Notes under the pieces: generated by a model
Databases searched by the model: none
What the model saw: the letters and a program-made list of their open reading frames with translations, nothing else
Told to the model about the DNA's origin: nothing
Part shown: in pieces, positions 28,182 through 61,092 of the stretch
How the letters are laid out: every line of letters starts with the position of its first letter
Position numbering within the stretch: position 1 is the stretch's first letter
DNA from: Actinomycetota bacterium
Lineage (GTDB): Bacteria; Actinomycetota; CADDZG01; WHSQ01
Length of the DNA stretch: 64,000 bases
Assembly: GCA_050694055.1 (NCBI GenBank)
Contig: JBOGWX010000053.1
Location: 6,251 to 70,250 of the forward strand
Direction of reading: 5' to 3'
Program-made: the position numbers and the translations under genes

Positions 28182-29027
28182 TTAGCTCTCCTGCTCCGGC
28201 CGGCGGACGTCTACGGTGTGGGTCTCTTTGTGCTCCGAGCGTTCCGCAATCAACTCCTCGAAGAACCGCTGAATCTCGTCCTCGGGAATCTCCACCATTC
28301 CGGGGCCGGAGATCGCGACCACGTTCGGGAATATGCCCCGCATCAGGTCGGGCCCGCCGGTCCCCACATCTTCGTCCGCGGCGTCGAACAGCGCTTCGAT
28401 GGCGAACTTCACCGCTGCATCTCGGCTGAGACCTTCCCGGTAGCGCTTCTTGAGCGAGCTGCGCGCGTCCTTTCCACCCGAGCCCGACGCATGGTAGTCG
28501 TCCTCCTCGTAACGCCCACCCGTCACGTCGTACTTGAAGATGCGCCCGCGCTGCTGGTCGTCGTCGAAACCCGCGAACACCGGAACGACCACGAGTCCCT
28601 GCATCGCAGCCGGCAGGTTGGCCCGGATCATCTGGCTCAGCTTGTTCGCCTTGCCCTCGAGCGTGAGCCGCTCGCCCTCGACCTTCTCGTAGTGCTCGAG
28701 CTCGGTCTGAAACAGTCGAACCATCTCGACCGCCGGGCCCGCTGCGCCGGCGATTGCGACCGCGGAATGATCGTCGGCGGCGAAGACCTTCTCGATGGAA
28801 CGGTGGGCTATCTGGAAGCCCTCGGTCGCACGCCGGTCGCCCGCGACGATGACTCCCTCCTCGTAGCGGAGAGCAAGCACCGTCGTGCCCTCGGGCACCT
28901 GAAGGTTGCCCGAGCCGTGGACTCGAGACAGCGCCTCCGGCGCGTGGGACCGAAGCAGGTCGGAGAACGACGAGCCCGGCCCGTTCACCGGGACCCGGAT
29001 CAGGTCGCTGAGGTGTGGTTCTTTCAT
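28182..29027 (-). CDS. prcB: 20S proteasome beta subunit (with propeptide)
   Basis: ORF 28182..29102. ATG 29025-29027 (MKEPHL...) follows a GGAGAGAG; 29102 is the alternative start. The propeptide ends at ...QVPEG/TTVLALRYEEGVIVAGDRR with the catalytic Thr. Confidence 0.85.
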   Translation of the reverse strand: MKEPHLSDLIRVPVNGPGSSFSDLLRSHAPEALSRVHGSGNLQVPEGTTVLALRYEEGVIVAGDRRATEGFQIAHRSIEKVFAADDHSAVAIAGAAGPAVEMVRLFQTELEHYEKVEGERLTLEGKANKLSQMIRANLPAAMQGLVVVPVFAGFDDDQQRGRIFKYDVTGGRYEEDDYHASGSGGKDARSSLKKRYREGLSRDAAVKFAIEALFDAADEDVGTGGPDLMRGIFPNVVAISGPGMVEIPEDEIQRFFEELIAERSEHKETHTVDVRRPEQES

Positions 29028-40959: not shown

Positions 40960-41361
40960 TTAGGCGTCGGGAGCGAGCCGCGCGAAGAACTCCGCGCAGC
41001 GGGTCGCCTCGGAGTGCTCGCCGATCTCCGCCGCCGCGACACCCAGTCCTCGCAGCGAGCGAAGGAAGCCACGGTTCGGCTCGTGCGCCCAGGGGACCCG
41101 GCCGCTCCCACGCCAGCCCGCCCGGCGAATGCGGTCGAGCCCGCGGTGGTAGCCGACGCGAAAATAGGCGTAAGCCTCGACGTTTCGGCCCCCGTCCAAG
41201 GCGGACTCGCCGAGGGCGGCCCAGGCCGTCAGGCACTCCGGATACCTGCCGGCCACCGACGCGCGCGCGTCGAAGGACTCGGCTGCGGCCAGCGCTTCGA
41301 GCGACCCCCGGGGTTCTTCGATGGTCGTCTTTGCGGGTTCCGTTATAGGGAGCTCGGGCAT
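40960..41361 (-). CDS. DUF3151 family protein
   Basis: 133 aa. AYAYFRVGYHRGLDRIRRAGWRGSGRVPWAHEPNRGFLRSL is the conserved DUF3151 core as I recall it. Confidence 0.7.
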   Translation of the reverse strand: MPELPITEPAKTTIEEPRGSLEALAAAESFDARASVAGRYPECLTAWAALGESALDGGRNVEAYAYFRVGYHRGLDRIRRAGWRGSGRVPWAHEPNRGFLRSLRGLGVAAAEIGEHSEATRCAEFFARLAPDA

Positions 41362-41424
41362 GGCTGCATCGTATTGCCTTACCGCAAGGAAGCCTGCCGC
41401 CCGGCCTCGAGCGACCCCCGGTGG

Positions 41425-42036
41425 CTAGAGAGAGTCGACTTTGCCGTTGCCGGAGGCCCGCTCCCTGATCTCTCTCTGGCGCGTGATCGCGGCCGCCGCC
41501 CCGTCGAGCGCCTCGGCCAAGCGCCGTAGCCGTTCGTTCTCGGTGCGCATCTCCAGAAGCTCCTGCTTGAACTCGGCGCCGAAGTCGACTTGCGAGGCGA
41601 CGTCCCACGCGACTTCGTCCCCCGAGATCTCGACTGCGCTCGCGTCCGTGCCGGCCGCGGTGGCGACTCGCTCGAGCGCGCTCATACAGCCCGCCACGAG
41701 CTCGGGATCACCAACCGCTTCGTCATCGGCGAACGGTTGGATCTCCGCGGTGAGATAAGTGGTGCTCTCGGTTACGCGCGTCACCCTGAAGCGCTCACGT
41801 CCCTCCACCACGACGTCCATGCGACCGTCGTCGTAGCGGTTGAGCACCTCGACGACGCGCGCCGAGGTGCCGACCGTGCGCAGCTCGGTCTCCTCGGCGA
41901 GCAGGAGTCCGAACTCCTCGGACTTCTCGAGACACTCTCCGATCAGCTCCTTGTAGCGGTCCTCGAAGATGTGGAGGGGGACGCGCTCGCCCGGGAGCAA
42001 CACGACATTGAGAGTAAAGAGGCCGATCTCGCCCAT
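41425..42036 (-). CDS. LON N-terminal (substrate-binding) domain protein
   Basis: 203 aa. LFTLNVVLLPGERVPLHIFEDRYKELI is the Lon N-domain signature. No ATPase or protease domain. Confidence 0.8.
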   Translation of the reverse strand: MGEIGLFTLNVVLLPGERVPLHIFEDRYKELIGECLEKSEEFGLLLAEETELRTVGTSARVVEVLNRYDDGRMDVVVEGRERFRVTRVTESTTYLTAEIQPFADDEAVGDPELVAGCMSALERVATAAGTDASAVEISGDEVAWDVASQVDFGAEFKQELLEMRTENERLRRLAEALDGAAAAITRQREIRERASGNGKVDSL

Positions 42037-44295: not shown

Positions 44296-45192
44296 GTGAA
44301 GGCCCGCACCGTCTCCATCGACGTCCCCCTCGACCTTCGGCTGACTCTGCGAGTGCTCCGTGAGGGGGCGGGTGATCCCTGTCTGCGACTCACGCCCACC
44401 GAGGCGCTGCGGACCACTCGCACCCCCGACGGACTCGCGACGCTGCACCTCGCGTTGAGCGGGACCCGGCTCGAGGGGCGCGCCTGGGGGCCGGGGGCCG
44501 GGTGGCTGCTGGAGCACCTCGACGACCTCGTGGGTCTTCACGACGACGGCGGCAACCTGCGGCCTGCTCACCGGCTCGTGCGGGAGCTGCACCTGCGACT
44601 GGCCGGCATGAGGCTGGGCCGGACCCTGCGGGTCTTCGAGGCGCTCCTCCCGGCGATCCTCGGGCAGCGGGTCACCGGAGAGGAGGCTACTCGCTCGTAT
44701 CGTGCCCTCGTCCGCCGTTACGGCGATCCCGCGCCGGGGCCGATCCCGCTCATGGCGCCGCCCTCGCCCGAGCTGCTCGCCGGGCTCGGCTACTACGAGC
44801 TCCACCCGCTCGGCATCGAGCGCAGGCGAGCCGGGACGATTCTGCGCGCGGCGGCCGAGGCTCCCCGGCTGGAGCGGCTCGTCGAGACCGACGCCACCGC
44901 CGCGCGGCGACGTCTCGAGGCGATTGCGGGGGTCGGCGCGTGGACCTCGGCACACGTGGCTCGTACGGCCCTGGGGGATCCCGACGCCGTGGTGGTGGGC
45001 GACTGGAACCTGCCCCACACGGTGGCTTACGCGCTGGCCGGAGAGGAGCGCGCCACCGATGAGCGGATGCTCGAGCTGCTCGCTCCCTACGCGGGCCAGC
45101 GCGGCCGGGTGCAACGACTCATCGCTACCGGCTGCGGGTGGGCCCCCAGGCGCGGGCCGAAGCACCGGATGCGCAACTTCGCAAGGACCTGA
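44296..45192 (+). CDS. DNA-3-methyladenine glycosylase II family (AlkA-like, HhH-GPD) protein
   Basis: 298 aa. HhH-GPD region LEAIAGVGAWTSAHVARTALGDPDAVVVGDWNL. Its last 81 nt lie inside the left direct repeat of the island. Confidence 0.8.
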   Translation: MKARTVSIDVPLDLRLTLRVLREGAGDPCLRLTPTEALRTTRTPDGLATLHLALSGTRLEGRAWGPGAGWLLEHLDDLVGLHDDGGNLRPAHRLVRELHLRLAGMRLGRTLRVFEALLPAILGQRVTGEEATRSYRALVRRYGDPAPGPIPLMAPPSPELLAGLGYYELHPLGIERRRAGTILRAAAEAPRLERLVETDATAARRRLEAIAGVGAWTSAHVARTALGDPDAVVVGDWNLPHTVAYALAGEERATDERMLELLAPYAGQRGRVQRLIATGCGWAPRRGPKHRMRNFART

Positions 45193-45210
45193 TCCGTCCG
45201 CTCAGGAGCC
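45112..45210. repeat. Left 99-bp direct repeat (attL-like): 3' end of the alkA-like gene plus 18 nt
   Basis: CAACGACTCATCGCTACCGGCTGCGGGTGGGCCCCCAGGCGCGGGCCGAAGCACCGGATGCGCAACTTCGCAAGGACCTGATCCGTCCGCTCAGGAGCC matches 57031-57129 at 96 of 99 positions by hand alignment. Confidence 0.9.
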
Positions 45211-45438
45211 GTCCTTCATCGGCCCAAAGCGGAAGTCACCAACCGTAGAAGCAACGGAACCTGCGCGAGGCTCGCCCTCGACGACTTGTGGAGGCACGGA
45301 TGGCGAACTCTCGTCGTAGTCGTGGATGGCCACTAATAGCGCCGGAGACAGGCTCACGAGTGCCAAAGTACGACCAGGAACAGGGCCGTCGCAAGGAACC
45401 CCGTAACGAATCTGCGCGGGTAGTAGCCGAAGGGAGTG

Positions 45439-45813
45439 CTAGCCAGCATTGCTTTCTTTGCCCTCGGGTGCAGCAAGTCGCCCAATGATGCGATTGATTC
45501 GCGACCAGTCATAGGGTGCCTCGTGATCTGTTCGTTCCTCGGCTTCGGTCTGAAGCTCGCGAAGAATAGGAAGCGCCTCCACGATCCCAAACTCGTCGAC
45601 GAGCGCCAAAGCATCGAACTGTTGGCGCGGCTCGGGCGACCGGAGCCATTCGCATATCACCTGTCGAGCAACAAGCTGCTTCTGGGCGTCGAACCTCCGA
45701 TAGAGCTTCATCAGTTCCATCAAGGCTCCATGGGACTCCTTCCTGTCCATGAACTCACGATCGACCCGGAACCAGTAGTCATTCATCTCACGCCGGAAGT
45801 CGTCGACGTTCAT
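45439..45813 (-). CDS. Hypothetical protein, putative immunity protein of cassette 3
   Basis: 124 aa, helical and acidic (MNVDDFRREMNDYWFRVDREF...). Its ATG overlaps the TGA of the upstream ORF (ATGA, 45810-45813). The role is inferred from position only. Confidence 0.5.
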   Translation of the reverse strand: MNVDDFRREMNDYWFRVDREFMDRKESHGALMELMKLYRRFDAQKQLVARQVICEWLRSPEPRQQFDALALVDEFGIVEALPILRELQTEAEERTDHEAPYDWSRINRIIGRLAAPEGKESNAG

Positions 45814-46289
45814 GGAGACACCACCTTTAGGAACTCAGGCGGTATCGAGTAGGGGAAGTGCAACTCGCAGCCTCCGCCTGGCATCCCGAAATTGCGGCCA
45901 ACCTGAGTGACCTGGGGAATCTCGTAGCCTGCTTGTCGGAGGCCTGCGAGATCAATTCTCAGTACAGCATCGCAGGCCACGTTGGGGCTTAGAGCCAGAT
46001 CAATATGGGCCTGCATCTGGGACAGCCGCCGCGGAGTGGCGTACGACCCGGCTCGGAGACCGGTCCTCTCAATCGACCCGACAGCTTGTCTCACAGTCCA
46101 GTGAAATGCCTCGTCACCCGCACTGATCGCCCTTGTGGCAACTAGTCCTTGAGAACCTGAGAGCGATTCCCCGCGAGACCCTCCACGATCCCCACTCCTG
46201 TCCCATGTGCGCTGGCATTGGTTGTGCTGCCGGGCGCGAGTCTCGCCCTGTGTCGTAGTCGTAGGTCGCTCGATCGGGTGTCGTTGCAT
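45810..46289 (-). CDS. Hypothetical protein, putative orphan toxin domain (cassette 3); 5' end uncertain or frameshifted
   Basis: 159-aa ORF. The C-terminal about 110 residues look globular (ATRAISAGDEAFHWTVRQAVGS...GGGCELHFPYSIPPEFLKVVSP). The N-terminal third is low-complexity and overlaps ORF 46114..46467 in another frame. Confidence 0.4.
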   Translation of the reverse strand: MQRHPIERPTTTTQGETRARQHNQCQRTWDRSGDRGGSRGESLSGSQGLVATRAISAGDEAFHWTVRQAVGSIERTGLRAGSYATPRRLSQMQAHIDLALSPNVACDAVLRIDLAGLRQAGYEIPQVTQVGRNFGMPGGGCELHFPYSIPPEFLKVVSP

Positions 46290-46422
46290 TCGAAGGCGCC
46301 GCTCGGACTAGAAGATCAAGAGGAGCGCCAGAGTGGATGAGGAATGGCGCTCCGAACAGGAGTAGCAAGACCATAAGGGCGCGAGTCGTAAACGTAGGTC
46401 GCAGCCGAAAAAGGTCGATCAT
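46114..46422 (-). CDS. Small TM-helix ORF, possibly the detached N-terminus of the cassette-3 toxin
   Basis: ATG 46420-46422 with GAGG 9 nt upstream (about -12 counted from its first base). MIDLFRLRPTFTTRALMVLLLLFGAPFLIHS resembles the TM N-terminus of ORF 46940..47548. It overlaps 45810..46289 by 176 nt in a different frame. Confidence 0.3.
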   Translation of the reverse strand: MIDLFRLRPTFTTRALMVLLLLFGAPFLIHSGAPLDLLVRAAPSNATTPDRATYDYDTGRDSRPAAQPMPAHMGQEWGSWRVSRGIALRFSRTSCHKGDQCG

Positions 46423-46442
46423 GGTTGCAGCCTCGATGCCGT

Positions 46443-46943
46443 TCATTCGAAGCTCGGCCTCAGCCAAAGACCGAGTAGCCGATCCTCGGAGACCCCCGCA
46501 ACGACATCTTGCGCGAACTCGATCGCGCTTTCAGGTTCGAGTGGTTGGTCGGAACCCAGTTGCACCCAGCCCGTGGCCGGATCGAGAACTGTCGACCATT
46601 CGCCGACTTCCACCAGAGCTTCCGAAACGCCGGGCTTTAGATCAAGCGAGGCGGTCGATATCTGACCTGGCTGCGCCTGAGGAATGAGGACCTCCGCCTC
46701 TTTCCACGTCTCCATAGGGTGATATCCCCACACGTAGAGGAAGCGGCCGGTCTCGACACCGACCTCAATTTGGAGTGACCCAACTAGGAGTGAAGTGGTG
46801 CCCTTTCCCCCCGCGGCCCTGGTCAGCCCATCGGGGTCTAAGGGTCGGAAATCGAACGCGTGATCCTCGCGAATGTAAGCGAGGAGTCCAGCTAGGACCG
46901 TATCCGTTGGATGCGCGAGCAGGGCATGCGTCATTGCCGTCAT
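46443..46943 (-). CDS. Hypothetical protein, putative immunity protein of cassette 2
   Basis: 166 aa. Its ATG overlaps the TGA of the upstream ORF (ATGA, 46940-46943). No family recognised. Confidence 0.5.
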   Translation of the reverse strand: MTAMTHALLAHPTDTVLAGLLAYIREDHAFDFRPLDPDGLTRAAGGKGTTSLLVGSLQIEVGVETGRFLYVWGYHPMETWKEAEVLIPQAQPGQISTASLDLKPGVSEALVEVGEWSTVLDPATGWVQLGSDQPLEPESAIEFAQDVVAGVSEDRLLGLWLRPSFE

Positions 46944-47548
46944 CCCCCACTCCGGAATAGGAAGTGAAGAACGGTGTTCGTGTTCGGGTCGACGACGAGC
47001 TGCCAGGTTCCCTGACTGCCCCCGTACGCCCCCGAGACATCCCAGCGAAGTGCCCCAGGGACCCCACCGGGATCGGGGATCGGATCAGCGGCCTCCATGA
47101 TCTCGCGCATCGTCAACCGAGAGTCCAAGTAGGGCCGCGCGGGTTGACCGGCCTTCGTGATGTCGTCTAGATGCCGACTAACTGTTCCCGAAAGTCGTAG
47201 CTCGGCTACGTCGATTCCGTGGCGTGTGAGCGACGCAGCCCCCTTTGTGGCATTTAGATGCGAAGGCTCAAGAACGGCGCGCTTCACTTTGCCTGCTGAA
47301 TTCCCCCGGCCCACTGCCGATGGCAGCTCAAGCGATGAATTCGACGTGGAAGAATCATCAAAGGTGGTCGAAGGCGCGAACCAAGTGGGCGAGTCGTAAC
47401 TGTCAATCGGCAGAGGGCCGACCGGAGCGACCGCCAAGACCACTAGGGTGACGGCTGCAAATAACCACGTTGTTAGTGCGTCAGCTCTATTCCTTAACGA
47501 ATCGTAGGCGTAAGCCGGCGTCCCGTAGCCGACCGGGAGCGCCTTCAT
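46940..47548 (-). CDS. Hypothetical membrane-anchored protein, putative toxin of cassette 2
   Basis: 202 aa. One N-terminal TM helix (WLFAAVTLVVLAVAPV), then a globular C-terminal domain (...SRHLDDITKAG...GTWQLVVDPNTNTVLHFLFRS). Its ATG overlaps the TGA of the DUF2283 gene. Confidence 0.5.
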   Translation of the reverse strand: MKALPVGYGTPAYAYDSLRNRADALTTWLFAAVTLVVLAVAPVGPLPIDSYDSPTWFAPSTTFDDSSTSNSSLELPSAVGRGNSAGKVKRAVLEPSHLNATKGAASLTRHGIDVAELRLSGTVSRHLDDITKAGQPARPYLDSRLTMREIMEAADPIPDPGGVPGALRWDVSGAYGGSQGTWQLVVDPNTNTVLHFLFRSGG

Positions 47549-47778
47549 GACCGGCCGCCTGGTGGCGGCGCGCTATCCAGCAGACTCTTGGGCAAGAACC
47601 TCGACGCGTCTAGGACTTCGACGCCGAGCAACCTTCCGTCAGCATCGAAGTCGAGGTTGATCTCACCGTTTACCTGCAGGGGGTCACAGGGGTAGGTCGT
47701 AGCCACGCCACCCGCGCCTATATCATCCACGAAATAGATATAGGCAGCGTCGACGCTTGAGTCGTACTCGATCCTCAT
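47545..47778 (-). CDS. DUF2283-family protein, cognate immunity/antitoxin for the RHS tip
   Basis: 77 aa. MRIEYDSSVDAAYIYFVDD...INLDFDADGRLLGVEVLDASRFLP is the DUF2283 pattern. Its ATG overlaps the RHS TGA (ATGA, 47775-47778). Confidence 0.8.
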   Translation of the reverse strand: MRIEYDSSVDAAYIYFVDDIGAGGVATTYPCDPLQVNGEINLDFDADGRLLGVEVLDASRFLPKSLLDSAPPPGGRS

Positions 47779-50700
47779 GGCTGCGCCTTCATCAGGTTCT
47801 GGATGTATCCATAGCCTGATTTCGGGACGATTACTGTCCGGGCTGCGCCTTGATAGGTCCCGACGAAGATGTTGCTGGCCGCGTCATAATACCCAGTCTT
47901 CCAGACATTCTCGTGGTAGTACCTGAACGGACTTGAGGAACCGAGGACATTCTGAACCTCGTCGAGCCCCACGCCTCGGCTGGTCATACGTCGCAAAGCG
48001 TGCCCGCTGAGTTCGATGCTCTCATCGCCGAATTGCATGATGACGCGGGCTGCTCCGTCACTCCCTACGACAAACCTTCGGCTCCCACTAATCCCCCTTG
48101 TGGCCTTCCCAGCCTTGGCCAGCTTGTCGAGTCCCTTGGTACCAATGATCCCGGGGATGATCCTGCCGATCGCCTCGCCGGGATTGCCTGCCTTCCAGTC
48201 CTCGATGATGGGACCCGAGACGCTGTGCCACAATGACGATCCGAACTCTCCGGAGTTGTTCCACGCATAGGAGCCGAACGCGCCCACGTTCCTTTTGCAG
48301 CCACCGAAGTCCTGCGCGCAGTGCCAGCCGCCGACCACAATGTCCTTGGCTCCGACAATGGTGTCGACGACACCCTCACCGCCGCCCTTTACTACGCCGA
48401 TGACGTCCTTGCCGAACTCCACCGGGTTGTATCCCGAACCGCCGTCCTCCTCCTGGGCTGGAGGTGGCTGAGGAGCGGGGTACTGATATCTCCCGGCGGT
48501 GTTGGCCTCATAGGCCCGGGCGCCGATCGCGGCGCTGCCGATCTGCTCACCCTTTGCCTGGGCCCGAGCGAGTTTTGCGCTGCCGGTCCCATCGGGGATC
48601 GCCGCGTGGCCGTCGGACTCGATGTAGCTCACGGGATTGCCCGCCGCCAGCGCGTAGCGGTTGTTGGTCAGCCGGTCGGTCGAGAGCCCCAGGTTGGCGA
48701 GCGCCCCCAGGTAGAGGTCGGGCTGGATGAAGCTCGCGGTGCCCGAAGAGAAGCGGCGCGCCCCCATGTCGAGGCTCTCGGAGCCCGAGTCGTAGCGCTT
48801 GGCGCTGTAGCGGAAGGGGTTGAAGGGGTCGCTGTCGCTGGTCTCGCCCGAGGCGTCGGTGACCGCGTCGCCCTTGGTGAGCCCGACATCCTCGTCGCCG
48901 TAGGGGCGGTAGCCGTAGGAGGCGCGCACCGTGCCCTCGTCGGATCCCGGCGTGTTCTCCACCAGCACCGAGGTCGAGCCGTGGACGTCGTAGCCGAAGC
49001 TGTAGCTGCGCTCGGTGGCGGCCACGTTGGTCAGCGCCAGGCGAGTCCCGTAGGCGTCGTAGCTGAGCTGTTTGGTGACATCTGGGGCGGAAGTGTAGGC
49101 GGCGGTCTCGCTGGCGACCAGGGGGCTGAGCCCGATGTGGCCGAAGCTCGTGGTCCGGTCCGCGCTCGGGTCCTCGCGGTGGCTCTCGGTCTGGCTCACC
49201 ACCCGGTCGAGCGCGTCGTAGGTGTAGTTGGACTTGTCGCTGATCGCCCCGCCCGAGTAGCTCCGGTAGGCGACCAGGCGCTCGGAGAAGTCGTAGGAGT
49301 AGTCGGCCAGCAGGTTGGCGCTGGCGCTCGACCCTGAGGGCGAGCAGTCGGCCGCCGAGCCCGAGCTGGTGGTGACGCAGTCGAGGTTGCCGAGCACGTC
49401 GTAGTGGTAGCGGCTGGTTGATCCGGCCTCGGTCACCTCGGTGAGCTGGGCGCCGTCATAAGACGAGGTCTTGGTCTTGTCGAGGCTCCCGCCCGTGAGC
49501 CCGCTGGCCCCGGTGTAGCTCTTCTCGGTGGTGAGGTTGCCGGCGGCGACGATCCCGGGCGTGACCCTGGCCGCCTCGTCGAAGCTGTAGTCGATGCGGG
49601 TGTCGTGTCCGTCGAAGTAGCCGCTCGTGCGGTCGCGCCCGTCGTAGGCGTAGCGGGCGGTGCACGGTCGAGGCGCCCCTCCCCCAGGCTCGCACTCGGT
49701 CGGCTGCGCGCTCGGGCCCTCGAGCCCGAAGTCGTCGGCGACCCGGTGGCCGTTTAAGTAGTCGCCGCCGGGGTCCTCGTAGAACAGCTCGTGCGACTCG
49801 ACGATGGCGCCGGCGGAGTTTCTGATCTCGAGCGTGTCGAGCTTGGTGTTGGCGAAGTAGTCCCACTCGGTTACTTGCTGGGGCGAGGTCGACCACCCGC
49901 AGCCCGGGGCCGAGCCTGTGCCCCGGTAGAGCTTGCGGGAGTCCTCGAGCCCGGTCGGCTTGAAGGCGTTCACGACCCTGAGGTCGTCGTCGCAGGCAGA
50001 TGCCTTGTTCCCCTCGATTACCTGTGTGGAAAGCCAGTCGGCGGCGTCGTAAGTGAAGCTGTTGGATCGCCCGCCGGAGCCCGTGGTCGAGTCCGCGTCG
50101 TCGACGCGCGAGGAGAGGTTGGAGTTGGCGTCGTAGGCGTAGAGCGTGTGCCGCTGCGTCCCTCCGGTCTTGGCGTGCGACGCGAGCTCGATGCGATCGA
50201 GGCTGTCGTAGGTGGCGCTCAGCTCGATCGGCTTCTCACCGGGCGACTCCACCCCCGAGGCGTCGACGGCGCTGGTGAGGTTGTTGTGGGCGTCGTAGTC
50301 GTAGCTCACCCGCTGACCGTCGCGGTCGGTGCGAAGCCGCAGCTGCCCGTCGGCGAAGTAGGACCAGAACATGGCAGAGGACTGGTCGAACTCGCCGGGA
50401 GCCTTCTGAACCAGTCGCTCCGCCTGCCACCCCTCGGCGCGGTAGTCGAACACGGTCTTGGGGTTGGCGGGGTCCTTGGTCGAGTAGATCCAGCCGCTGT
50501 CGTAGTAGGCGGAGGTCGTGCCCGCGGCCGACTTGGATGCCGCATGCGTTCCCCCCGGCTCGAACTGAGCGGGGTCCGACACCGTCACCGGCAGCGAGGT
50601 CCAGGTGAGGTTGCCGTTGGCATCGTATTGGTGGTGGACGTAGGCGGCCTCGGTGCCGGGACCGGTCGGGAGCGCGGTTCTGGTGAGACGGTTGAGCCCG

Positions 50701-53615
50701 TCGTAGCTGTAGGACTCGACGTAGTCGCCGTAGCTCGGACGCAGCTCCGCGCCGGGCAGATCCGAAGTGCCGGCCGCGTCCCAGGCGCGCGGCGAGATCG
50801 ACTTGATGAGGTTGCCGGCCCCGTCGTACTCCTGCGCGGTGGTGACGAAGCGCCCCCCGAACTCAAACGGCGTGCGTTGCTTGACCATGAGGTCGCGCTC
50901 ATCATGGTAATGCTCGGTCGTGACCGTGGTGGCGCTCCCGTCGGGCTTGCGGTCGGGTGTGGTGATCGTGGAGACGTTGTCGTTGGCGTCGTACGCGTAG
51001 GTCGTGGTGTTGCCGTTGGGGTCGGTGACCGACTCGAGCTTGTGGTCGGACAAGTAGGTGTAGCTGGTGGCGAAGTCGTTGCTCGCCTCACAGGGGCCGC
51101 CCGCCCCCTTGGGCGGGATCGTGGCGACGAGGTCGCCCGTCAGCGCCTCGAAGCAGTAGCCGGTCGTAAGCGCGCCGCGGCTGTTGCCGGCCGCGTCGAC
51201 GTCGGGACGGGACTCGGATTTGACGCGATCGAGCGCGTCGTACCCATAAGTGGTGGTGAAGTGCGCCGGGGTCGCGCCCGTGAGGTTGCCTTTGGGTGCG
51301 GTCGTGGTGGCCAGCCGTCCGAGGTCGTCGTAGGTCGCGGTGGTGGCGTGGCCCTGGGGATCGGTCGCGGTGACCATCCGGTCCATGGCGTCGTAGGCCA
51401 TCGTCGTGCTGGGACCGTCGGGCACGAAGCCGCGCCCGTAGCGCGATCGGAGCTCGGCAGTAACGTTGTCGTTGGGATCGTGGCGCGCCCCCGACCATAT
51501 GAGCCGCCCGCGCTCGAGCTCGGTCGACTTCGGCGCGCTGACGAGGCCGAGGCGCTGGAACGCGTCGTAGAAGAAGTAGGTGCGATAGTTCTCCGGCTCG
51601 AGCACCGGCTCCCACTCCAGTGGATTGGCAAAGCGGTGGTGGTTGGGATCCTGGGAGAAGACCATGAGCCCGTCCGCGTCGTAGCCGAACTCGCTGATGC
51701 CGCCCTCGGCGTCGGTCACCTTGGTCGGCAGCCCGCTGGCGTCGTAGTCGTTGAAGGTGGTGGTGTGGTCGTTGGCGTCGGTCATGGTCTTGAGCGTCCC
51801 CGGATCCGCCGAGCCGGCCAGGTTCCAGGTGTATTCGCTCGTGTGCCTGACGCCGCGGTGATCCGCCGGCGAGGTCACCGAGACGAGGTTGCCGGCGGGG
51901 TCGTTTGAGAAGTCCCAGCGGAAGCTCCCCGCCGGCGCGCCAGAGAGGTTGCCCTTGGGGGCGGTCTTGGAGATAATGAAGCTGAGATGGGTGCCCGGGT
52001 CGGTGGCGTCGCCCGCTCGGTCGTCGTAGGTCAGGGTCGTGGCGTGACCCTGCTGATCGGTGACCTCGGTGAGATATCCGTTGGGGTTGTGGTCGTATGA
52101 CGTCGTCACGCCATGGGGCTCGGTGATCGAGTCGAGATGGTTGTCGTCGCCCCACGCCAGCGTGGTCACCTCGGCGGCGGGGTTTTGGAGCTCGCCGACG
52201 CGCCCGGAGCAGTCGTACGCGAAGCGACTGGGGCGACCGGCGTCGTCGAGCACGGTGGTGATGCGCTGGTCGATGTCGTACTGATAGGTCGTGGTCGTGC
52301 CCGCCCGGTCGCTGAGCGAGGCGAGCTTCCACTTGTTCTCGCCCGAGGTGACGTAGCTAAAGGTGGTCTCCGCGCCGCGCGGGTCGATGACGCCGAAGAG
52401 CTGATCGGATTGATTGCTGGTGTTTGCCGGCGGGTCCCGGCGCGTGTTGGCGTCGGGGATGGCGGGCCCGGAGCTGTCCGAGGTGGTGTAGGTGAAGGTG
52501 AAGCTGCGGTCGGGTAGCGCTCTGAGGTCGGCGGTGAGCCCACCCTCCTGGGTGAGGCGCAGCAGGTTGCCGTCGTCGTAGTAGTCGAAGGTCAGCTTCG
52601 ATCCGTCGTGGTCGCTGATCGCCTTGACGTTGCCTCGGACCTTGGGGTTGTTGGTCTCCTCCTTGGAGTAGTAGTCCAGCGTGAAGCTGCGCCCCGGAGC
52701 GGGAGTCGAGTCGTTTCCGGCCGCATCGGTAAACGCGGCCACGCGTTTGCCGGGCTGCCCCGGGTCCTCGGCCGGGGCGACGGCCTCGAGCTCGTAGGTG
52801 AGCGTGTTGCCGTTGCGATCGGTGACCGCGGTGGGGAAGCCGTCGGCGTCGTAATAGAAGGTGACGTCGTCGGGCCGGGTAAAGGCCCACTTGCCGAGCG
52901 GGTCGCCGGTCAGCGCCCGCAGATAGAGGTGCACCCCCGGCGGCGGGTGCCACACGATCGAGCCGCCCACCTTCTCGCCGTCGAACTGGTGGGGGGTGCC
53001 GTCGGCGTCGACGAAGCGGACCCAGCGAGGGGCGTTTCCCTGAGGGTCGTCGGCGTTCTTGGGATGGATGTCGATGGGCTGCCCCAGCTGGGTGAGGCTC
53101 GAGATCGACAGCCCGAAGTTGTCGCCCAGCGGCGGTCCGGTGCGCTTGACGATGCTGTTGTAAGTGATGTCCACGATGGTCGACAGTCCCCGGCCGGGGG
53201 AGGCAAACGGGGTCCAGCGCAAAACCGAGTTGCCGTTGTTGACGTTGGTGAGCTGCGACATCCCCGCGCCCAGCGCGGTCGGCCGGTAGTGGTAGTAGTG
53301 CTCGAGACCGAGCGCCTCGGTCATGAGCGCGAGGTTGACCGTCGAGGCCGAACCCTGCTCGCAGGGCTGCATGCGGGCGCGCCCCACGACCGCCGGCGCG
53401 ACCTTGGGGGCATTGCCCTCACTGGAGAAGGCGACCTCGCCCCCTCCGCTGAGGTCGACCAGATCGAAGCGCAGCTGGTAGGGCTCCGACGCCACTCCGG
53501 GAGGAAGCGGGGGCGGCTCGAGCTGGAGACCGCTGAGAGCTTGCGAGGCCCCGGCGTCGAGCGAAGCGAGCGTGGCGATCGAGTCTTGCTGCGCCACGGT
53601 GCCGGCGGGAGTCAC
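47775..53615 (-). CDS. RHS-repeat polymorphic toxin, C-terminal fragment (3 of 3): RHS/YD shell, PT-TG-like linker, DUF4258-like toxin tip
   Basis: 1946 aa. Dozens of YD repeats (YAYDANDN, YSYDGLNR, HQYDANGN, YDYDAHNN, TYDALDR). The core ends ...NNRYALAAGNPVSYIESDGH. The tip carries PGIIGTKGLDKLAK and SGHALRRMTSRGVGLDEV. The reading frame stays open upstream of the GTG. Confidence 0.9.
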   Translation of the reverse strand: MTPAGTVAQQDSIATLASLDAGASQALSGLQLEPPPLPPGVASEPYQLRFDLVDLSGGGEVAFSSEGNAPKVAPAVVGRARMQPCEQGSASTVNLALMTEALGLEHYYHYRPTALGAGMSQLTNVNNGNSVLRWTPFASPGRGLSTIVDITYNSIVKRTGPPLGDNFGLSISSLTQLGQPIDIHPKNADDPQGNAPRWVRFVDADGTPHQFDGEKVGGSIVWHPPPGVHLYLRALTGDPLGKWAFTRPDDVTFYYDADGFPTAVTDRNGNTLTYELEAVAPAEDPGQPGKRVAAFTDAAGNDSTPAPGRSFTLDYYSKEETNNPKVRGNVKAISDHDGSKLTFDYYDDGNLLRLTQEGGLTADLRALPDRSFTFTYTTSDSSGPAIPDANTRRDPPANTSNQSDQLFGVIDPRGAETTFSYVTSGENKWKLASLSDRAGTTTTYQYDIDQRITTVLDDAGRPSRFAYDCSGRVGELQNPAAEVTTLAWGDDNHLDSITEPHGVTTSYDHNPNGYLTEVTDQQGHATTLTYDDRAGDATDPGTHLSFIISKTAPKGNLSGAPAGSFRWDFSNDPAGNLVSVTSPADHRGVRHTSEYTWNLAGSADPGTLKTMTDANDHTTTFNDYDASGLPTKVTDAEGGISEFGYDADGLMVFSQDPNHHRFANPLEWEPVLEPENYRTYFFYDAFQRLGLVSAPKSTELERGRLIWSGARHDPNDNVTAELRSRYGRGFVPDGPSTTMAYDAMDRMVTATDPQGHATTATYDDLGRLATTTAPKGNLTGATPAHFTTTYGYDALDRVKSESRPDVDAAGNSRGALTTGYCFEALTGDLVATIPPKGAGGPCEASNDFATSYTYLSDHKLESVTDPNGNTTTYAYDANDNVSTITTPDRKPDGSATTVTTEHYHDERDLMVKQRTPFEFGGRFVTTAQEYDGAGNLIKSISPRAWDAAGTSDLPGAELRPSYGDYVESYSYDGLNRLTRTALPTGPGTEAAYVHHQYDANGNLTWTSLPVTVSDPAQFEPGGTHAASKSAAGTTSAYYDSGWIYSTKDPANPKTVFDYRAEGWQAERLVQKAPGEFDQSSAMFWSYFADGQLRLRTDRDGQRVSYDYDAHNNLTSAVDASGVESPGEKPIELSATYDSLDRIELASHAKTGGTQRHTLYAYDANSNLSSRVDDADSTTGSGGRSNSFTYDAADWLSTQVIEGNKASACDDDLRVVNAFKPTGLEDSRKLYRGTGSAPGCGWSTSPQQVTEWDYFANTKLDTLEIRNSAGAIVESHELFYEDPGGDYLNGHRVADDFGLEGPSAQPTECEPGGGAPRPCTARYAYDGRDRTSGYFDGHDTRIDYSFDEAARVTPGIVAAGNLTTEKSYTGASGLTGGSLDKTKTSSYDGAQLTEVTEAGSTSRYHYDVLGNLDCVTTSSGSAADCSPSGSSASANLLADYSYDFSERLVAYRSYSGGAISDKSNYTYDALDRVVSQTESHREDPSADRTTSFGHIGLSPLVASETAAYTSAPDVTKQLSYDAYGTRLALTNVAATERSYSFGYDVHGSTSVLVENTPGSDEGTVRASYGYRPYGDEDVGLTKGDAVTDASGETSDSDPFNPFRYSAKRYDSGSESLDMGARRFSSGTASFIQPDLYLGALANLGLSTDRLTNNRYALAAGNPVSYIESDGHAAIPDGTGSAKLARAQAKGEQIGSAAIGARAYEANTAGRYQYPAPQPPPAQEEDGGSGYNPVEFGKDVIGVVKGGGEGVVDTIVGAKDIVVGGWHCAQDFGGCKRNVGAFGSYAWNNSGEFGSSLWHSVSGPIIEDWKAGNPGEAIGRIIPGIIGTKGLDKLAKAGKATRGISGSRRFVVGSDGAARVIMQFGDESIELSGHALRRMTSRGVGLDEVQNVLGSSSPFRYYHENVWKTGYYDAASNIFVGTYQGAARTVIVPKSGYGYIQNLMKAQP

Positions 53616-54730
53616 CCATTGGGCGATGAGCTCCGTGGTCGACGCGGCCAGGCGACGGTGCTGTCGTTGGTGACTGTGACGTCGATCAGCTCCTGAGCGG
53701 CGTGACGAAAGACGCTCGGGGGGCTGACCGCGATGGCGGCCTGATATTTGGTGCCCGAGGTGTTGTCGACCTCCATGGCCGCCGGGGTCGAGGTGCGGGT
53801 GAGCCCGTTGACCCCGATCGCCCTGGCGGTAATCGCGTGGGCGCTGATGCCGTGCTCGGGACGCGCGTCGTAGCCGGGCACGGCGGGATCGAGGGTGTCC
53901 CAGGTGGCTTGATAGGGCGCGGTGGTGTCGGTTGCGAACAGCGTCCCGTCGACCAGGAACTCGACCCGCGCCACTCCCGAGTCGCTCGCGGCGCTGGCGC
54001 TGACGGTGACGGTTTGTGTGGTGATCGGGCTGGTGGCGGGGTCGAGAGCGGAGATCGACACCGTCGGCCGATGCCCGATCCCGGGTGTCACCGGGGTGCT
54101 CGAGGTCGCGTTCCCCGCGTCGTCGGTGGCGACCGCCCAGAGGCTGATGTCCGGCTCGAGTCCCTGGTTGAGCACCAGGGTCATGTCGTTGATGTCGAAG
54201 GGGACCTCATAGGGGGCCTCGGTGGCGGTGCCCACCAGCTGATCGGGGTGGCCGTCCTCTTGGAAGTAGAACTCGACTGATTCGACCCGGCCGTCGTCGA
54301 AAGCCTCGGCCCGCAGCGTCACGGGCTCGTCCCACACCAGGGTCTCCCGATCGCTGGGGAACTCGAGCGCGACGGTGGGCCCGCTCGAGGCCGCCGAGCC
54401 CGAGTAGGTGACCTCGAGCTTGGGCCGGAGGTTGGGCGCTACGGCGTAGTCATCGGAGAAGTATCTGAAGTTCTGGCCGGTGCGGTTGGTGGACTCTTGC
54501 GGGCGCTTGAGCAGCAGGCCGAAGTTGGGGTGCTGGCCGGTGACCCAGCCCGTCACCAGCGGCTCGACGTCGTAGCTGTCCCACCCCACGGCCTCGCGGT
54601 CGACCGCAGAGGTGGCCACGATGGCGCCGGAGCGGTCTGCTCCCGGCGTACTCCATTCCGCCCCCGCTGGGTCTCCTGCCAGGTCGCGCCCCGGCCGCTG
54701 CAGGCGCCGTTGGCGCCGCCCTCCCGCCAC
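53612..54730 (-). CDS. Middle fragment (2 of 3) of the same toxin: end of a DNRLRE-type domain plus two Ig-like domains
   Basis: Meaningful sequence begins at ...AEWSTPGADRSGAIVATSAVDREAVGWDSYDVEPLVTGWVTGQHPNFGLLLKR (about 54662 downward). Ig-like repeats (VESVEFYFQEDG..., VARVEFLVDGTLFATD...). The first about 23 codons are out-of-frame junk. Confidence 0.7.
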   Translation of the reverse strand: MAGGRRQRRLQRPGRDLAGDPAGAEWSTPGADRSGAIVATSAVDREAVGWDSYDVEPLVTGWVTGQHPNFGLLLKRPQESTNRTGQNFRYFSDDYAVAPNLRPKLEVTYSGSAASSGPTVALEFPSDRETLVWDEPVTLRAEAFDDGRVESVEFYFQEDGHPDQLVGTATEAPYEVPFDINDMTLVLNQGLEPDISLWAVATDDAGNATSSTPVTPGIGHRPTVSISALDPATSPITTQTVTVSASAASDSGVARVEFLVDGTLFATDTTAPYQATWDTLDPAVPGYDARPEHGISAHAITARAIGVNGLTRTSTPAAMEVDNTSGTKYQAAIAVSPPSVFRHAAQELIDVTVTNDSTVAWPRRPRSSSPNG

Positions 54731-56706
54731 GCCCTCGTGACCCGGTGGATGTCGACCCCGATGTTGGCCGAGGTCGCCTCGTGGTAGAGCGACAACTGAG
54801 CCGACGAGACGTTTGCATCCGGAGGAATCTTGCGTAAATCGAAGCGGATCAGCGGCCGGTAGACGTAGTTGTCGGTCGTGCCCACTCGCAAGGAGGTGGA
54901 AGCCCCGTAGTTCTTGCAGCTCGAGTCGCCGTCGACCATGAAGGTCGACGATCCCGCGTTGGGCTCTGGCTGCAAGCTCGCCGTGGTCAGCCCCGCCGCC
55001 GGCAGGGTCACGGTCCGGCGGTCGGAGGAGTTGCCCCAGGTCACGATTCGGTAGGTGAAGCTTTGGTCCGGAGCCGCGGTGGTGTCCCGGTAGGTGGTGC
55101 GGTCGACGTCGCCGATGTGAGCGATGAAGGTGGCTGCTCCGGGCGTGAAGCTCGCATCCCGGGAACGGTGGATCTCATATCCGGCAAAGCCGAACACGCC
55201 GTCGAAGGGGTAGCGGCTCCAACGCAGCTCGGCCCCGTTGGAGTGCAGCACCTCGGGCGCGTGCAGGGTGGAAGCGGTGTTGATCCAGGTGACCTCGAGC
55301 TTGGGCCGCATGGTGGGGTCGCCCGTGAAGCGCTTGCCCGGGACCCGGGGACCGCTGGCGCCGCTGGGCTCGGTGCTGCGCTTGACCAGCACCCCGTTGT
55401 TGGGCACGTCATAGAGCAGCCAGTCGTTGACCAGCTCTTCGACGTCCCACGAGATCCACTGCGGCGGCTCGGCGCCGCTGGCCAGCGTCGTCGACGCCAC
55501 CGTCGGCCCCACGGTCATGTTGTTGGGCTTGGTCGAGGTCACCCATGCCGAGTTCATCTGTTTCACCGCGAGGCCGTGGGACTTTCCTCCGCAGTTCGAC
55601 GAGCCTCCGACGCAGGTCCCGTCGTAGAAGAGCTTGAGCTGCGCAGCGCTGGCCATGGGGCCCTCGGGGATCGCGCTGAGGTCGAAGCGCAGGCCGGCAC
55701 GCCAGACGTTGCTCGAGTTGGTGCCGATGGGAAGGCGCGTGCCGGTGGTGCCGGCGCACGACATACAGGCCCAGTCGAAGCTTGCGTCCTCGGTCGACTC
55801 GATGCCCTCCTGGATCGTGACCGTTGGATCTAACAGGACGGGGAAGACCCGCTCCGGAGCGCTCAGCCACTCGGGGTCGACCGAGAGGGCCACCTCGAAT
55901 CCCCCGTCATGCGGCGTGACCTCCATCGAGGCTTCGCCGGTGGCGTAGGCCTCGACCTCGCCGGTGACCGAGGAGTCGCGTACCGTGGGCGCGTCTAGCA
56001 CGAACAGCGGGTTGGCGTCGTCCCCCCCGATGAAGTCATAGGAGCCGTCCGGGTTGGGCTGGGCTTCCATGGTGGGGTCCGAGGTCGTGAGGTTGAAGGT
56101 GTAGGAGCTCTGTGCCTCTGGGTCGTTGAGAACGAGGGTCTCCTTGACCCCCAGGGTCGTCACCTCGTAGCGCAGATCGGTGTCCGCCACGGCGTCCGGG
56201 TAGACCAGGCGCGCGCCGTCGGCCTGTGCCTCGGTAGGCTGCGCACCCTCGAGTTCCATGCGGACGCTTTCTTCGTGGATTCGCAGCTCCATGAAGTCCC
56301 CGACGGGCTGGTCTGAGAAGAAGACGTCGAAGAGGTTGGGCCCCGTGGCGAGATCGAAGCCCGGCTCGGTCGTGGGGCCGAGCGTTGGATCGATGGTCCG
56401 CCACTGCCCCCGGCTCACTTCGAATTGCACCGGGGCGGTGTGAAAGGTGGTGGTGTAGCTGCCGTCAGCGTTCTGCTTGGTGCGCGCGGTGGACGACTGC
56501 AGGTCTGACAAGTCGAGTGCAGCAGGTTGCTTGGTGGTCTGGGCTTCGGCCTCTGAGGCGAACTCGGCTGCCACTAGTGGCAACAGTGAGGCCGTGAGGC
56601 AGATGATCAGCAGCACCGCCGAGCATCTTGGCCTGCGACTTGCCGGTCGCTGCAACCGACGTGCCACGCTCCTGCTGGATTTCTTGCCGGCCGTCCTTGC
56701 GCCCAC
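54553..56706 (-). CDS. N-terminal fragment (1 of 3) of the same toxin: signal peptide plus DNRLRE-type domains
   Basis: Signal peptide CSAVLLIICLTASLLPLVAAEFASEAEA. Repeated DNRLRE-like blocks (RAGLRFDLSAIPEGPMASAAQLKLFY; LIRFDLRKIPPDANVSSAQLSLYHE...IHRVTRAW). The sequence after ...ATWQETQRG (about 54660) is out-of-frame junk. Confidence 0.75.
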   Translation of the reverse strand: MGARTAGKKSSRSVARRLQRPASRRPRCSAVLLIICLTASLLPLVAAEFASEAEAQTTKQPAALDLSDLQSSTARTKQNADGSYTTTFHTAPVQFEVSRGQWRTIDPTLGPTTEPGFDLATGPNLFDVFFSDQPVGDFMELRIHEESVRMELEGAQPTEAQADGARLVYPDAVADTDLRYEVTTLGVKETLVLNDPEAQSSYTFNLTTSDPTMEAQPNPDGSYDFIGGDDANPLFVLDAPTVRDSSVTGEVEAYATGEASMEVTPHDGGFEVALSVDPEWLSAPERVFPVLLDPTVTIQEGIESTEDASFDWACMSCAGTTGTRLPIGTNSSNVWRAGLRFDLSAIPEGPMASAAQLKLFYDGTCVGGSSNCGGKSHGLAVKQMNSAWVTSTKPNNMTVGPTVASTTLASGAEPPQWISWDVEELVNDWLLYDVPNNGVLVKRSTEPSGASGPRVPGKRFTGDPTMRPKLEVTWINTASTLHAPEVLHSNGAELRWSRYPFDGVFGFAGYEIHRSRDASFTPGAATFIAHIGDVDRTTYRDTTAAPDQSFTYRIVTWGNSSDRRTVTLPAAGLTTASLQPEPNAGSSTFMVDGDSSCKNYGASTSLRVGTTDNYVYRPLIRFDLRKIPPDANVSSAQLSLYHEATSANIGVDIHRVTRAWREGGANGACSGRGATWQETQRGRNGVRREQTAPAPSWPPLRSTARPWGGTATTSSRW

Positions 56707-57030
56707 CCGAGGCTCCCTTCCCCTTCGCCGAATGCCATGTGATTCGGCGATCTCCCTACATGCACGCCCGCTGGCGTTTGGTAGCAGGAGAGTCCAGGTC
56801 CGGTCACCGTCCGCAGCGTTGGTTAGAAAGAACTAGTCCTTACGGGAACCGAGGTCAAGGGCTTTTCTACGGATTGGTTACCACAGTTGCTGTCTGACTC
56901 TCGCTGATGAAAAAGAGCCCAAAACGATATTTATCCGGTTCACCATGTATGAGCTCAATCTTTGGGATCCTTTCTGCCACCGGTAACTCCTTGTCGTGAT
57001 CGCACTTGCGGCAACGACACTTGCAGCGAC

Positions 57031-57129
57031 CAACGGCTCATCGCTACCGGCTGCGGGTGGGCCCCCAGGCGCGGCCCGAAGCACCGGCTGCGCAACTTCG
57101 CAAGGACCTGATCCGTCCGCTCAGGAGCC
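57031..57129. repeat. Right 99-bp direct repeat (attR-like): orphan copy of the alkA-like 3' end
   Basis: 96/99 identical to 45112-45210; the differences are at repeat positions 6, 44 and 59. It contains the stop codon (57121-57123) of the converging cNMP-binding gene. Confidence 0.9.
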
Positions 57130-58143
57130 TTCCGGCGGGTCGCCGCCCCCTTCTTCCTCGCGCCGGTGGTCGCCGCTGAGCTGCTCCAGATGTTCGGGCT
57201 CCACCACCTCGGGCGGCACGACGACGCCCCGCAGTGGCGTGACGGCCGTCACCGTCGCGGTGCGGCGGCCCCCTTCCAGCACGGCGCGCTCGCCCATCAC
57301 CGCCCCCGGTCCGATCTCGGCGACGAGCTTGCCGTCCACCTCCACCGACGCGACGCCATCGAGGACCAAAAAGAGGTCACTCCCCTCCTCACCCTGACGG
57401 AACAGGACCTCGCCCGCGCGCAGTCGACGTCGCTTGGTTGGATGCTCCGAGCCCATGATGGAGCGCGACAAGTGACGCTCGAGCTCGGACTCGACCTCGG
57501 TCGTCAGGGCGTCCCGATCGACCGCCTCCCACGGCGTCACCCCGCCGAAGGCGTGGTGGTACCACTGGTCGAAGTCGATGAGCCCGCTCTTGGCCACGAG
57601 ATCGCCAGACGCGTCGTAGACCCAGTGGCGGGGGAAGGGGCTCGAACCGACCAGTCGCCCCTCGGCCGTCCCATCGGCGAGAAGCTCGAGCTCGAGCGTG
57701 GTCCACACCACCGGAGCTCGCAGTTGCACGAACGGCCTGTGTTTGACGCGGCGCGGGGCGGGAAGCGCCGGGCGGCCCCCTGCCGTCTGTCGCCAGGTGA
57801 CCGACTCGGCCGTGACGATGGGATCGGGGCGCAGGTCAGGAAGCGAGATTCCCGGGAGGCTGATGGTGCGGGTGCCCCTGCCCACCACGGAGCTCCCCAT
57901 GATTCCGCCGCCTTCGCAGCCGTAGCCGACGATTCCTCGTTCGTCCACGTCGATCCACGCCTCGAGCACGTTCGCGAAGCGCAGTTTCTGGTTTTCGACC
58001 AGGCGCGCAACGTCGTCTATATGTCCGGGCGGGGGTTCGTCGATGTGAGTGATCCCCACCTGAAAGGGAAGGTTCGGCAGACCCCTGATGGCCTCGGACG
58101 GAATCCAAGAGATCACGCTCACTGAAGAAGAGTGACGAGTCAC
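57121..58143 (-). CDS. Protein with an unknown about 230-aa N-terminal domain and a C-terminal cyclic-nucleotide-binding domain
   Basis: 340 aa. cNMP-binding beta-barrel LRAGEVLFRQGEEGSDLFLVLDGVASVEVDG...IGPGAVMGERAVLEGGRRTATVTAV. GTG 58141-58143 overlaps the TGA of the cyclase gene. Confidence 0.75.
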   Translation of the reverse strand: MTRHSSSVSVISWIPSEAIRGLPNLPFQVGITHIDEPPPGHIDDVARLVENQKLRFANVLEAWIDVDERGIVGYGCEGGGIMGSSVVGRGTRTISLPGISLPDLRPDPIVTAESVTWRQTAGGRPALPAPRRVKHRPFVQLRAPVVWTTLELELLADGTAEGRLVGSSPFPRHWVYDASGDLVAKSGLIDFDQWYHHAFGGVTPWEAVDRDALTTEVESELERHLSRSIMGSEHPTKRRRLRAGEVLFRQGEEGSDLFLVLDGVASVEVDGKLVAEIGPGAVMGERAVLEGGRRTATVTAVTPLRGVVVPPEVVEPEHLEQLSGDHRREEEGGGDPPEGS

Positions 58144-60872: not shown

Positions 60873-61008
60873 CCATTCCCCCTCGGCATCCAGGTGCCAC
60901 CGCGGCTGCCATTGTGACTGTTGTTCGTCGCAAAGACGAGTGGGGCAAACCCGGCGTCTGCCCTGCGCACGGCAGCGCGGGTGGGCTCGGTCCCAGGCTG
61001 GATGTGAG

Positions 61009-61092
61009 TGCGGTGGGAGGGACTTGAACCCTCACGTCCTTGCGGACACATGGCCCTCAACCATGCCTGTCTACCAATTTCAGCACCACCGC
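61009..61092 (-). tRNA. tRNA-Leu (anticodon GAG), long variable arm, CCA not encoded
   Basis: The reverse complement is GCGGTGG-TG-CTG-AAATTGGTAGA-CAG-G-CATGG-TTGAGGG-CCATG-TGTCCGCAAGGACGT-GAGGG-TTCAAGT-CCCTC-CCACCGC-A. It folds by hand into a class II cloverleaf with anticodon loop UUGAGGG. Confidence 0.9.

Follow-up and report, generated by a model that had tools for sequence, protein, structure and literature searches.

The stretch of DNA analysed here, 64,000 nucleotides from an uncultured Acidimicrobiia-like actinobacterium (hereafter the window), contains an 11.8-kb island, with a giant gene of the WapA/Rhs toxin type, that lies between two converging genes, an alkA-like DNA glycosylase gene and a gene for a cyclic-nucleotide (cNMP)-binding domain, and is flanked by two direct copies of the junction between them. 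A first-pass annotation had proposed that direct repeats at 45112-45210 and 57031-57129 bound a toxin island inserted at the 3' end of the alkA-like gene. The repeats are real and their true extent is somewhat greater: the repeated segment, which we call R, spans 103 nt (45112-45214 and 57031-57133), aligns without gaps, and is identical at 99 of 103 positions. The similarity ends abruptly past both edges of either copy, and BLAST finds exactly two copies in the window (E 5e-46 for the partner; the next-best match is 14 nt). R covers the last 27 codons of the alkA-like gene and a spacer of 9 nt, and extends 13 nt into the cNMP gene on the other side. The features at the borders are these:

44296-45192, plus strand: alkA-like HhH-GPD DNA glycosylase gene, 298 aa, the target, intact (Pfam HhH-GPD, E 4e-5)
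45112-45214, no strand: R-left, attL-like; last 81 nt of alkA, then the 9-nt spacer and 13 nt left over from the end of the cNMP gene
45215-45438, no strand: left arm, non-coding; all frames free of Pfam domains and no inverted repeat in common with the right arm
56617-57030, no strand: right arm, A/T-rich and non-coding, upstream of the toxin gene; GC 0.58, no domain in six frames
57031-57133, no strand: R-right, attR-like; orphan alkA 3' fragment, the spacer, and the functional cNMP gene end
57121-58143, minus strand: cNMP-binding domain gene, the second target, intact (cNMP_binding, E 3.5e-16)

Insertion at the alkA/cNMP junction

The two copies of R have the composition that had been proposed for them, and all figures of the first-pass annotation hold. 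Up to 45210, the end given there, the left one is the true end of the alkA-like gene plus 18 nt, as the open reading frame (ORF) at 44296-45192 stops 18 nt before this position. In the right one, an orphan fragment of alkA still reads ...QRLIATGCGWAPRRGPKHRLRNFART*, and the cNMP-binding gene (57121-58143, minus strand) has its stop codon there. When one copy and the intervening DNA are removed in silico, the two stop codons come to lie 9 nt apart, and the junction so rebuilt can be aligned with those of relatives in which it is empty. Because both copies hold the alkA end, the spacer, and the cNMP end contiguously, each descends from an uninterrupted junction. The copies are 96% identical, whereas the flanking DNA is 74-80% identical to the nearest relatives, so the source of the second copy was this genome or one very closely related to it. 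Direct repeats that duplicate the 3' end of a target are what is expected of attL and attR, and R provides such a pair.

The state of the junction in relatives reveals that the island is an insertion. Our comparison clade consists of 12 loci, at about 70% aa and 74-80% nt identity to the window, in which the gene order Lon_sb-DUF169-radical SAM-alkA … cNMP-STAND-tRNA-Leu-SBP is conserved; the alkA-like protein, which public annotation assigns to the DNA-3-methyladenine glycosylase family, is 68-72% identical to its syntenic relatives and the cNMP-binding protein 80-84%. No relative of the alkA protein between 72% and 100% identity exists among 5.8 billion proteins. In three of the 12 loci (L036, L020, and L023) alkA and cNMP converge directly, with a spacer of a few tens to about 100 nt. 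The other nine (L003, L012, L021, L025, and L031-L035) hold a single gene with DUF222 and HNH domains (440-456 aa, of the actinobacterial 13E12 type) precisely between the two stop codons, e.g. at L003:10922-12247 and L012:10960-12330; this is the same junction as 45193-45201 and 57112-57120 of the window. These DUF222-HNH genes have no flanking repeats that we could find and, present in some loci and absent from others, they resemble selfish or homing-type genes in their distribution. None of the syntenic relatives carries the island. The first-pass annotation would have been undermined if all relatives shared the duplicated arrangement; none has the island or a duplicated alkA end. Since the junction is either empty or filled by DUF222-HNH in the relatives, with no duplication of the alkA end, the island is a lineage-specific insertion at a junction that is variable in the clade. 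Short tandem or palindromic, REP-like repeats lie directly 3' of alkA in some distant Acidimicrobiia relatives (L014:10900-11020, L017:10970-11020, L018:10787-10904).

The sequence comes from a metagenome-assembled genome (MAG), and an assembler might have joined a chromosome with an empty alkA-R-cNMP junction to a circular or plasmid-borne element that exists separately and has its own copy of R; all records of the locus may also share the same reads. We consider such an artefact, which the first-pass annotation had named as fatal to its proposal, very unlikely, because a contig spans both copies and the four mismatches leave no exact run in R longer than 41 nt, so that standard k-mer sizes tell the copies apart. 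Positions 40351-62733 of the window are identical to a 22.4-kb contig of MAG GCA_975307705.1, whose short-read assembly passes through both copies of R despite breaking elsewhere (at 32191 and 40351 of the window). The same proteins occur on a 147-kb NCBI MAG contig (MGH2750225 to MGH2750233) that agrees with the arrangement, and the Rhs protein is also present in a Logan run assembly. Even if the two molecules had been separate, an element with a 103-bp copy of the junction would exist.

Further away from the island, the first-pass annotation had pointed to a tRNA-Leu. It is present, as tRNA-Leu(gag) at 61008-61092, but it is unrelated to the island because island-free relatives have the same tRNA at the same syntenic position; together with the absence of a partial tRNA copy, this rules it out as the attachment site. 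The island itself is set in a conserved core region, where 10828-32191 encodes proteasome subunits, TatA/TatC, an ATP-dependent DNA ligase, a helicase of the HelY type, and two members of the Pup-ligase family. A 49-nt direct repeat (41294-41342 and 41404-41452, 71% identical and 110 nt apart) is found around the boundary of the DUF3151 and Lon_sb genes.

The toxin gene and its neighbours

All genes of the island are on the minus strand. Its cargo, as read from the predicted frames, is essentially one long WapA/Rhs-type toxin gene, which two frameshifts split, accompanied by a few small ORFs, and the description of the locus as a toxin island is borne out by RHS repeats at E 5.5e-53. In the order of transcription the features are:

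54553-56616, minus strand: N-terminal DNRLRE/CBM96 segment (NF033679 DNRLRE, E 7e-32; CBM96, E 1e-15)
54661-54667, minus strand: frame break 1, which lies in a G5 run and splits a DNRLRE domain
53612-54730, minus strand: Big_7 (bacterial Ig) segment (Big_7, E 8e-25), whose N-terminus contains the C-terminal half of a DNRLRE domain
53640-53660 (~53648), minus strand: frame break 2, at the join of Big_7 to Rhs, within one beta-sandwich-type domain
47775-53615, minus strand: Rhs/YD-repeat segment, an ORF of 1946 aa (RHS_repeat PF05593, E 5.5e-53, 8 stretches)
48606-48851, minus strand: Rhs-associated core motif, where the Rhs shell ends (TIGR03696, E 4.7e-10, 39.8 bits against a cutoff of 32.5)
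47778-48605, minus strand: polymorphic C-terminal tip, ~275 aa, distal to the Rhs-associated core
47545-47778, minus strand: DUF2283 protein gene (Pfam DUF2283, E 1e-12), directly after the tip and overlapping the toxin stop codon
46940-47548, minus strand: o202, ORF with a GC content at third codon positions (GC3) of 0.65; predicted N-terminal helix and small C-terminal alpha/beta unit in a low-confidence model
46443-46943, minus strand: o166, ORF, GC3 0.64
45810-46289, minus strand: o159, doubtful ORF that is not called in public annotation, GC3 0.61
45439-45813, minus strand: o124, small ORF, GC3 0.67

The architecture is that of a polymorphic toxin. On inspection, the N-terminus looks like a signal peptide, with a basic n-region and a hydrophobic stretch. 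The long ORF contains both an RHS/YD shell (its protein record lists TEN_YD-shell) and the Rhs-associated core, and it ends in a domain that also occurs in other architectures, for which toxicity is predicted. Most homologues encode the three ORFs as one protein of 2,500-3,100 aa (~2,950 aa in relatives for the toxin that is split here); they are annotated as "DNRLRE domain-containing proteins", come from Micromonospora, Gaiellaceae, Solirubrobacter, and many MAGs, and are 40-45% identical to ours. The N-terminal segment has only three homologues (41-49% identity), and its gene has no match on viral contigs. Two of the contigs with homologues, L037 and L038, stop just upstream of the toxin gene and give no information on borders.

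Relative to these fused homologues, the gene has two single-base breaks and lacks a single intact frame. At the first break, four homologues (P0121, P0128, P0130, and P0151) are collinear across the frame switch. At the second, the fused homologue P0130 aligns from q999 to q1000 over the switch at ~53648, and the motif VTVTNxSxxxW...RYRW...PPSLPDG is unbroken in P0128 and P0130; L037 seems to be likewise broken close to this site. The breaks may be real decay, i.e. pseudogenisation, because no clear frame break is seen in about 20 kb of syntenic genes on the flanks, or they may be homopolymer errors of the consensus, as the contrast with the flanks is weak (P~0.1). Apart from these two frameshifts, the toxin ORF is free of stop codons over about 9 kb.

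The tip belongs to a sizeable family. Its last ~100 aa (47778-48104) are found again at the very C-terminal end of 335 cluster representatives (E<=1e-3), which range from stand-alone proteins of ~100 aa to Rhs giants with TcdB/SpvB-type or PA14-type N-termini. In the family alignment (A2), H35, R39, R43, F60, G71, and Y73 are invariant and H64 and K69 nearly so. DUF4258 is a family of BECR-fold toxins of the RelE/ParE superfamily whose activity is unknown (PMC11980606), and the weak, sub-threshold matches of the tip (E 0.087 here, 0.002-0.008 in family members) suggest that it may be distantly DUF4258-like. No meaningful relatives of the tip, o202, o166, or o124 were found in the PDB, also when the family profile was used, and single-sequence AlphaFold models are of low confidence (pLDDT 41 for the tip and 47 for o202). 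From its adjacent position, the DUF2283 protein is a candidate immunity protein for the toxin.

The four ORFs to the left of the DUF2283 gene have no match in Pfam, NCBIfam, or the PDB. An interpretation as an orphan rhs toxin/immunity array is not supported, and we do not call them orphan modules because none of them resembles the end of the Rhs core (all E>1). They differ in composition from the toxin gene. The toxin body has a GC3 of 0.87-0.91, against 0.82-0.87 in the flanks, and host-like codon usage, whereas the DUF2283 gene and the four ORFs have a foreign composition (GC3 0.61-0.70); for the four ORFs alone the range is 0.61-0.67, against 0.85 in the host. As the first-pass annotation had remarked, the GC content is lower than in the flanks at both island ends (0.58-0.60 at 45250-48250 and 0.58 at 56500-57000, against 0.65-0.74), but these zones are not generic borders: the left one consists of the toxin tip and 2.5 kb of small foreign ORFs, and the right one of 0.3 kb of upstream non-coding DNA. 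The right arm (56617-57030) contains no consensus promoter that we could find.

Routes of integration

No integrase, transposase, or relaxase was found in the island ORFs or in scans of both arms with hidden Markov models in six frames, in agreement with the first-pass annotation. The six-frame Pfam scans (45193-47800 and 56600-57135) gave no recombinase remnant even at E<=1, and no replication or transfer domain appeared in any frame of the island scans. There are no terminal inverted or arm-type repeats, the best inverted match between the ends being 8 nt, and R has no unusual structure, palindrome, or terminator (structure z = 0.1). Neither R nor the island ends match known plasmids and phages. 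An element of the transposon or insertion-sequence type can be rejected, given the lack of a transposase and of terminal inverted repeats and a duplication of 103 nt. The island had been taken for the footprint of site-specific insertion. The insertion and the attL/attR geometry at a gene 3' end hold, but site-specific recombination can only be inferred from them, since a single crossover by RecA on 103 bp of homology would leave the same footprint.

The scenario that we favour, and to which we give about an even chance, has three steps. First, a circular DNA element would have carried the WapA/Rhs-type toxin locus together with a ~103-bp copy of the alkA/cNMP junction. Second, a single Campbell-type crossover within the junction segment would have integrated the element and duplicated the segment; both converging genes would keep complete 3' ends because of this duplication. 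Third, the recombinase would have been lost or have acted in trans (the likeliest candidate is a tyrosine integrase like those of actinomycete integrative elements), leaving an att-flanked remnant without integrase in which the toxin gene may be decaying. The element probably supplied the current 3' end of alkA, and the native end would have been moved 11.9 kb away as an orphan. The alkA part of R differs between the copies at three sites, and at two of them the orphan copy is typical of the clade (CGG; CTG = Leu) while the copy in the gene is not (CGA, a rare A-ending codon here; ATG = Met). This pattern, weak with n=3, fits an element-supplied 3' end and is the opposite of what drift in the orphan would give.

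The genomic context of homologues lends some support to the involvement of an integrase. We examined it for three fused homologues on long contigs (L042, L041, and L040). In L042 (Ga0597097_0000001) the homologous DNRLRE-Rhs gene is bracketed by modules like those of AICEs (integrative and conjugative elements of actinomycetes), with Phage_integrase, HTH_17, and Replic_Relax at 5635-8297 and Phage_integrase, Replic_Relax, and a TrwB-like protein at 24646-28538. The toxin family can thus adjoin integrative-element modules, which is mild support; no att-like repeats of at least 28 nt were found in this contig. A second, CBM96-Rhs gene lies upstream in L042. In L041 (Ga0394184_0000093, 8548-19345) the DNRLRE-Rhs gene occupies the same syntenic interval as here (tRNA-Leu/SBP_bac_5 … DUF3151/SpoU) in the same orientation, with no integrase and no repeats; in this more distant relative the STAND, cNMP, alkA, and radical-SAM genes are missing from the interval, and the whole interval from tRNA-Leu/SBP to DUF3151/SpoU may be a long-standing variable region. 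The context of the homologue in L040 revealed nothing mobile.

The main rival to integrase-mediated insertion keeps the circle and the single crossover and dispenses with the integrase: a toxin-bearing circle with the 103-bp junction, for example an excised or illegitimately circularised fragment of a very close relative, would have been inserted by the host's RecA, which could likewise excise it. The footprint would be identical, homology of 103 bp at 96% identity is ample for RecA, and the lack of a recombinase or remnant in the island, a junction that is not a recurrent att site, and an R devoid of special structure or palindrome are in its favour. We nevertheless regard it as unlikely, as it requires an unexplained prior step that placed an exact junction copy on the circle, natural cases are rare compared with decayed integrative elements, and integrase modules stand beside the same kind of toxin gene in L042. 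An extension of this idea, which strikes us as quite unlikely, is that a recombinase-free toxin cassette with a captured 103-bp junction moves among close relatives purely through host homologous recombination, the junction serving as a landing pad; the DUF222-HNH gene is there in most relatives, and breaks induced by HNH nucleases have perhaps made the site recombinogenic.

Breaks at the junction could also have led to duplication in place. Here breaks staggered by ~100 nt, which could stem from an HNH nuclease of the DUF222-HNH type, would have captured a linear fragment with the toxin gene, and fill-in would have produced a perfect 103-bp repeat that diverged later. The repeated use of the junction, with the DUF222-HNH gene in nine of the 12 loci, the lack of a recombinase in the island, and the possible decay of the toxin gene, which would be consistent with age, are in its favour. 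Yet the orphan copy of R is less derived than the copy in the gene, a long neutral period agrees poorly with ~9 kb of toxin ORF that two frameshifts alone interrupt, and the window contains no DUF222 remnant. We also know of no bacterial elements with target duplications of ~100 bp, and judge this route highly improbable.

Several observations weigh against integrase-mediated insertion itself. First, no integrase, excisionase, replication, or transfer gene, or recognisable remnant of one, occurs in the island or in the annotated parts of the 64-kb window. Second, at 103 bp R would be a long att identity segment; that of SLP1 reportedly measures 112 bp. Third, the host-like GC3 and codon usage do not mark the toxin body as recently foreign. 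Fourth, the alkA 3' end is duplicated in no other of the about 30 loci in which we checked it, so the junction is not a recurrent att site in this sample and no element family is seen there. Fifth, the closest available empty sites are in relatives only ~72% aa and ~75% nt identical to the window. On the other hand, the commonest route to a structure of this kind is insertion by an integrase whose module is lost afterwards or which acts in trans. The island is a fairly ordinary decayed integrated island rather than a new type of mobile element, and no feature of it demands a new mechanism.

Relation to known systems and significance

Among described systems, cis-mobilisable elements (CIMEs), which retain attL and attR and have lost the genes for integration and transfer (PMC5704250), are the class that the island resembles in its borders. 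It keeps attL/attR-like repeats, has no integrase, excisionase, relaxase, or transfer genes, and carries an adaptive cargo, a competition toxin; the favoured scenario would make it a CIME-type remnant. CIMEs were defined in streptococci, however, usually occupy tRNA genes or other recurrent sites, and often stand in tandem with a functional element, whereas the island lacks a tandem partner, shows no trace of an earlier recombination module, and occupies a site that is not used recurrently. AICEs integrate through att identity segments that overlap gene 3' ends (PMC2440964). The island has an actinobacterial host, restores the 3' end of its target through such a segment, and has a toxin homologue in L042 that adjoins int, HTH_17, Replic_Relax, and TrwB-like modules; in contrast to AICEs, which insert at tRNA genes and possess int, xis, rep, and tra, it has none of these genes and sits at a junction of protein genes. 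As it has no integrase of its own, the island is not a member of the integrative and conjugative elements (ICEs), the integrative and mobilisable elements (IMEs), or the AICEs, nor is it an integrative element of prophage type. The one hint that it might descend from an ICE or IME is the context of L042.

The cargo finds its closest parallel in the WapA toxins of Gram-positive bacteria, where a Sec signal and a DNRLRE domain are joined to an Rhs shell and a toxin at the C-terminus (PMC12704120). Like WapA-CT1 of S. suis and WapA of B. subtilis (PMC12704120), the island protein begins with what looks like a signal peptide and has a DNRLRE domain, a shell of Rhs/YD repeats, an Rhs-associated core, and a variable C-terminal toxin, with a small gene directly downstream. 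If intact, it would be exported by Sec and held at the surface by its DNRLRE and Ig domains, the Rhs shell enclosing a BECR-like C-terminal toxin from which the adjacent DUF2283 protein would protect the producer cell. It differs from WapA in having Big_7 Ig domains and no LysM domain, sortase, or SecF-like partner; in a gene split by two frameshifts; in a tip of a DUF4258-like family, the activity of which is predicted; and in its low identity to any described protein, which is at most 45% even for uncharacterised homologues. Enterobacterial rhs loci, with their AT-rich tips and orphan toxin/immunity arrays (PMC3967940), resemble the island in the succession of a GC-rich, host-like core, a lower-GC tip, and small ORFs, but here the downstream ORFs are unlike the Rhs core end and there is no type VI secretion system in the context. 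With this cargo the WapA/Rhs class gains a new member, possibly a degenerate one.

To our knowledge, almost nothing is known about the mobile elements of the Acidimicrobiia-like group. Should integration without an integrase turn out to be true, the locus would be a useful case of island mobility through host recombination alone; otherwise it is a routine decayed island. One convergent junction that exists in three states within a clade (empty, with a DUF222-HNH gene, and with the toxin island) provides a small natural system for the study of hotspot use. The tip represents an uncharacterised, putative toxin family with an invariant His/Arg/Arg set, paired here with DUF2283. At this locus, a giant competition toxin of the WapA/Rhs type entered a conserved core region of an uncultured lineage, beside its proteasome/Pup cluster.

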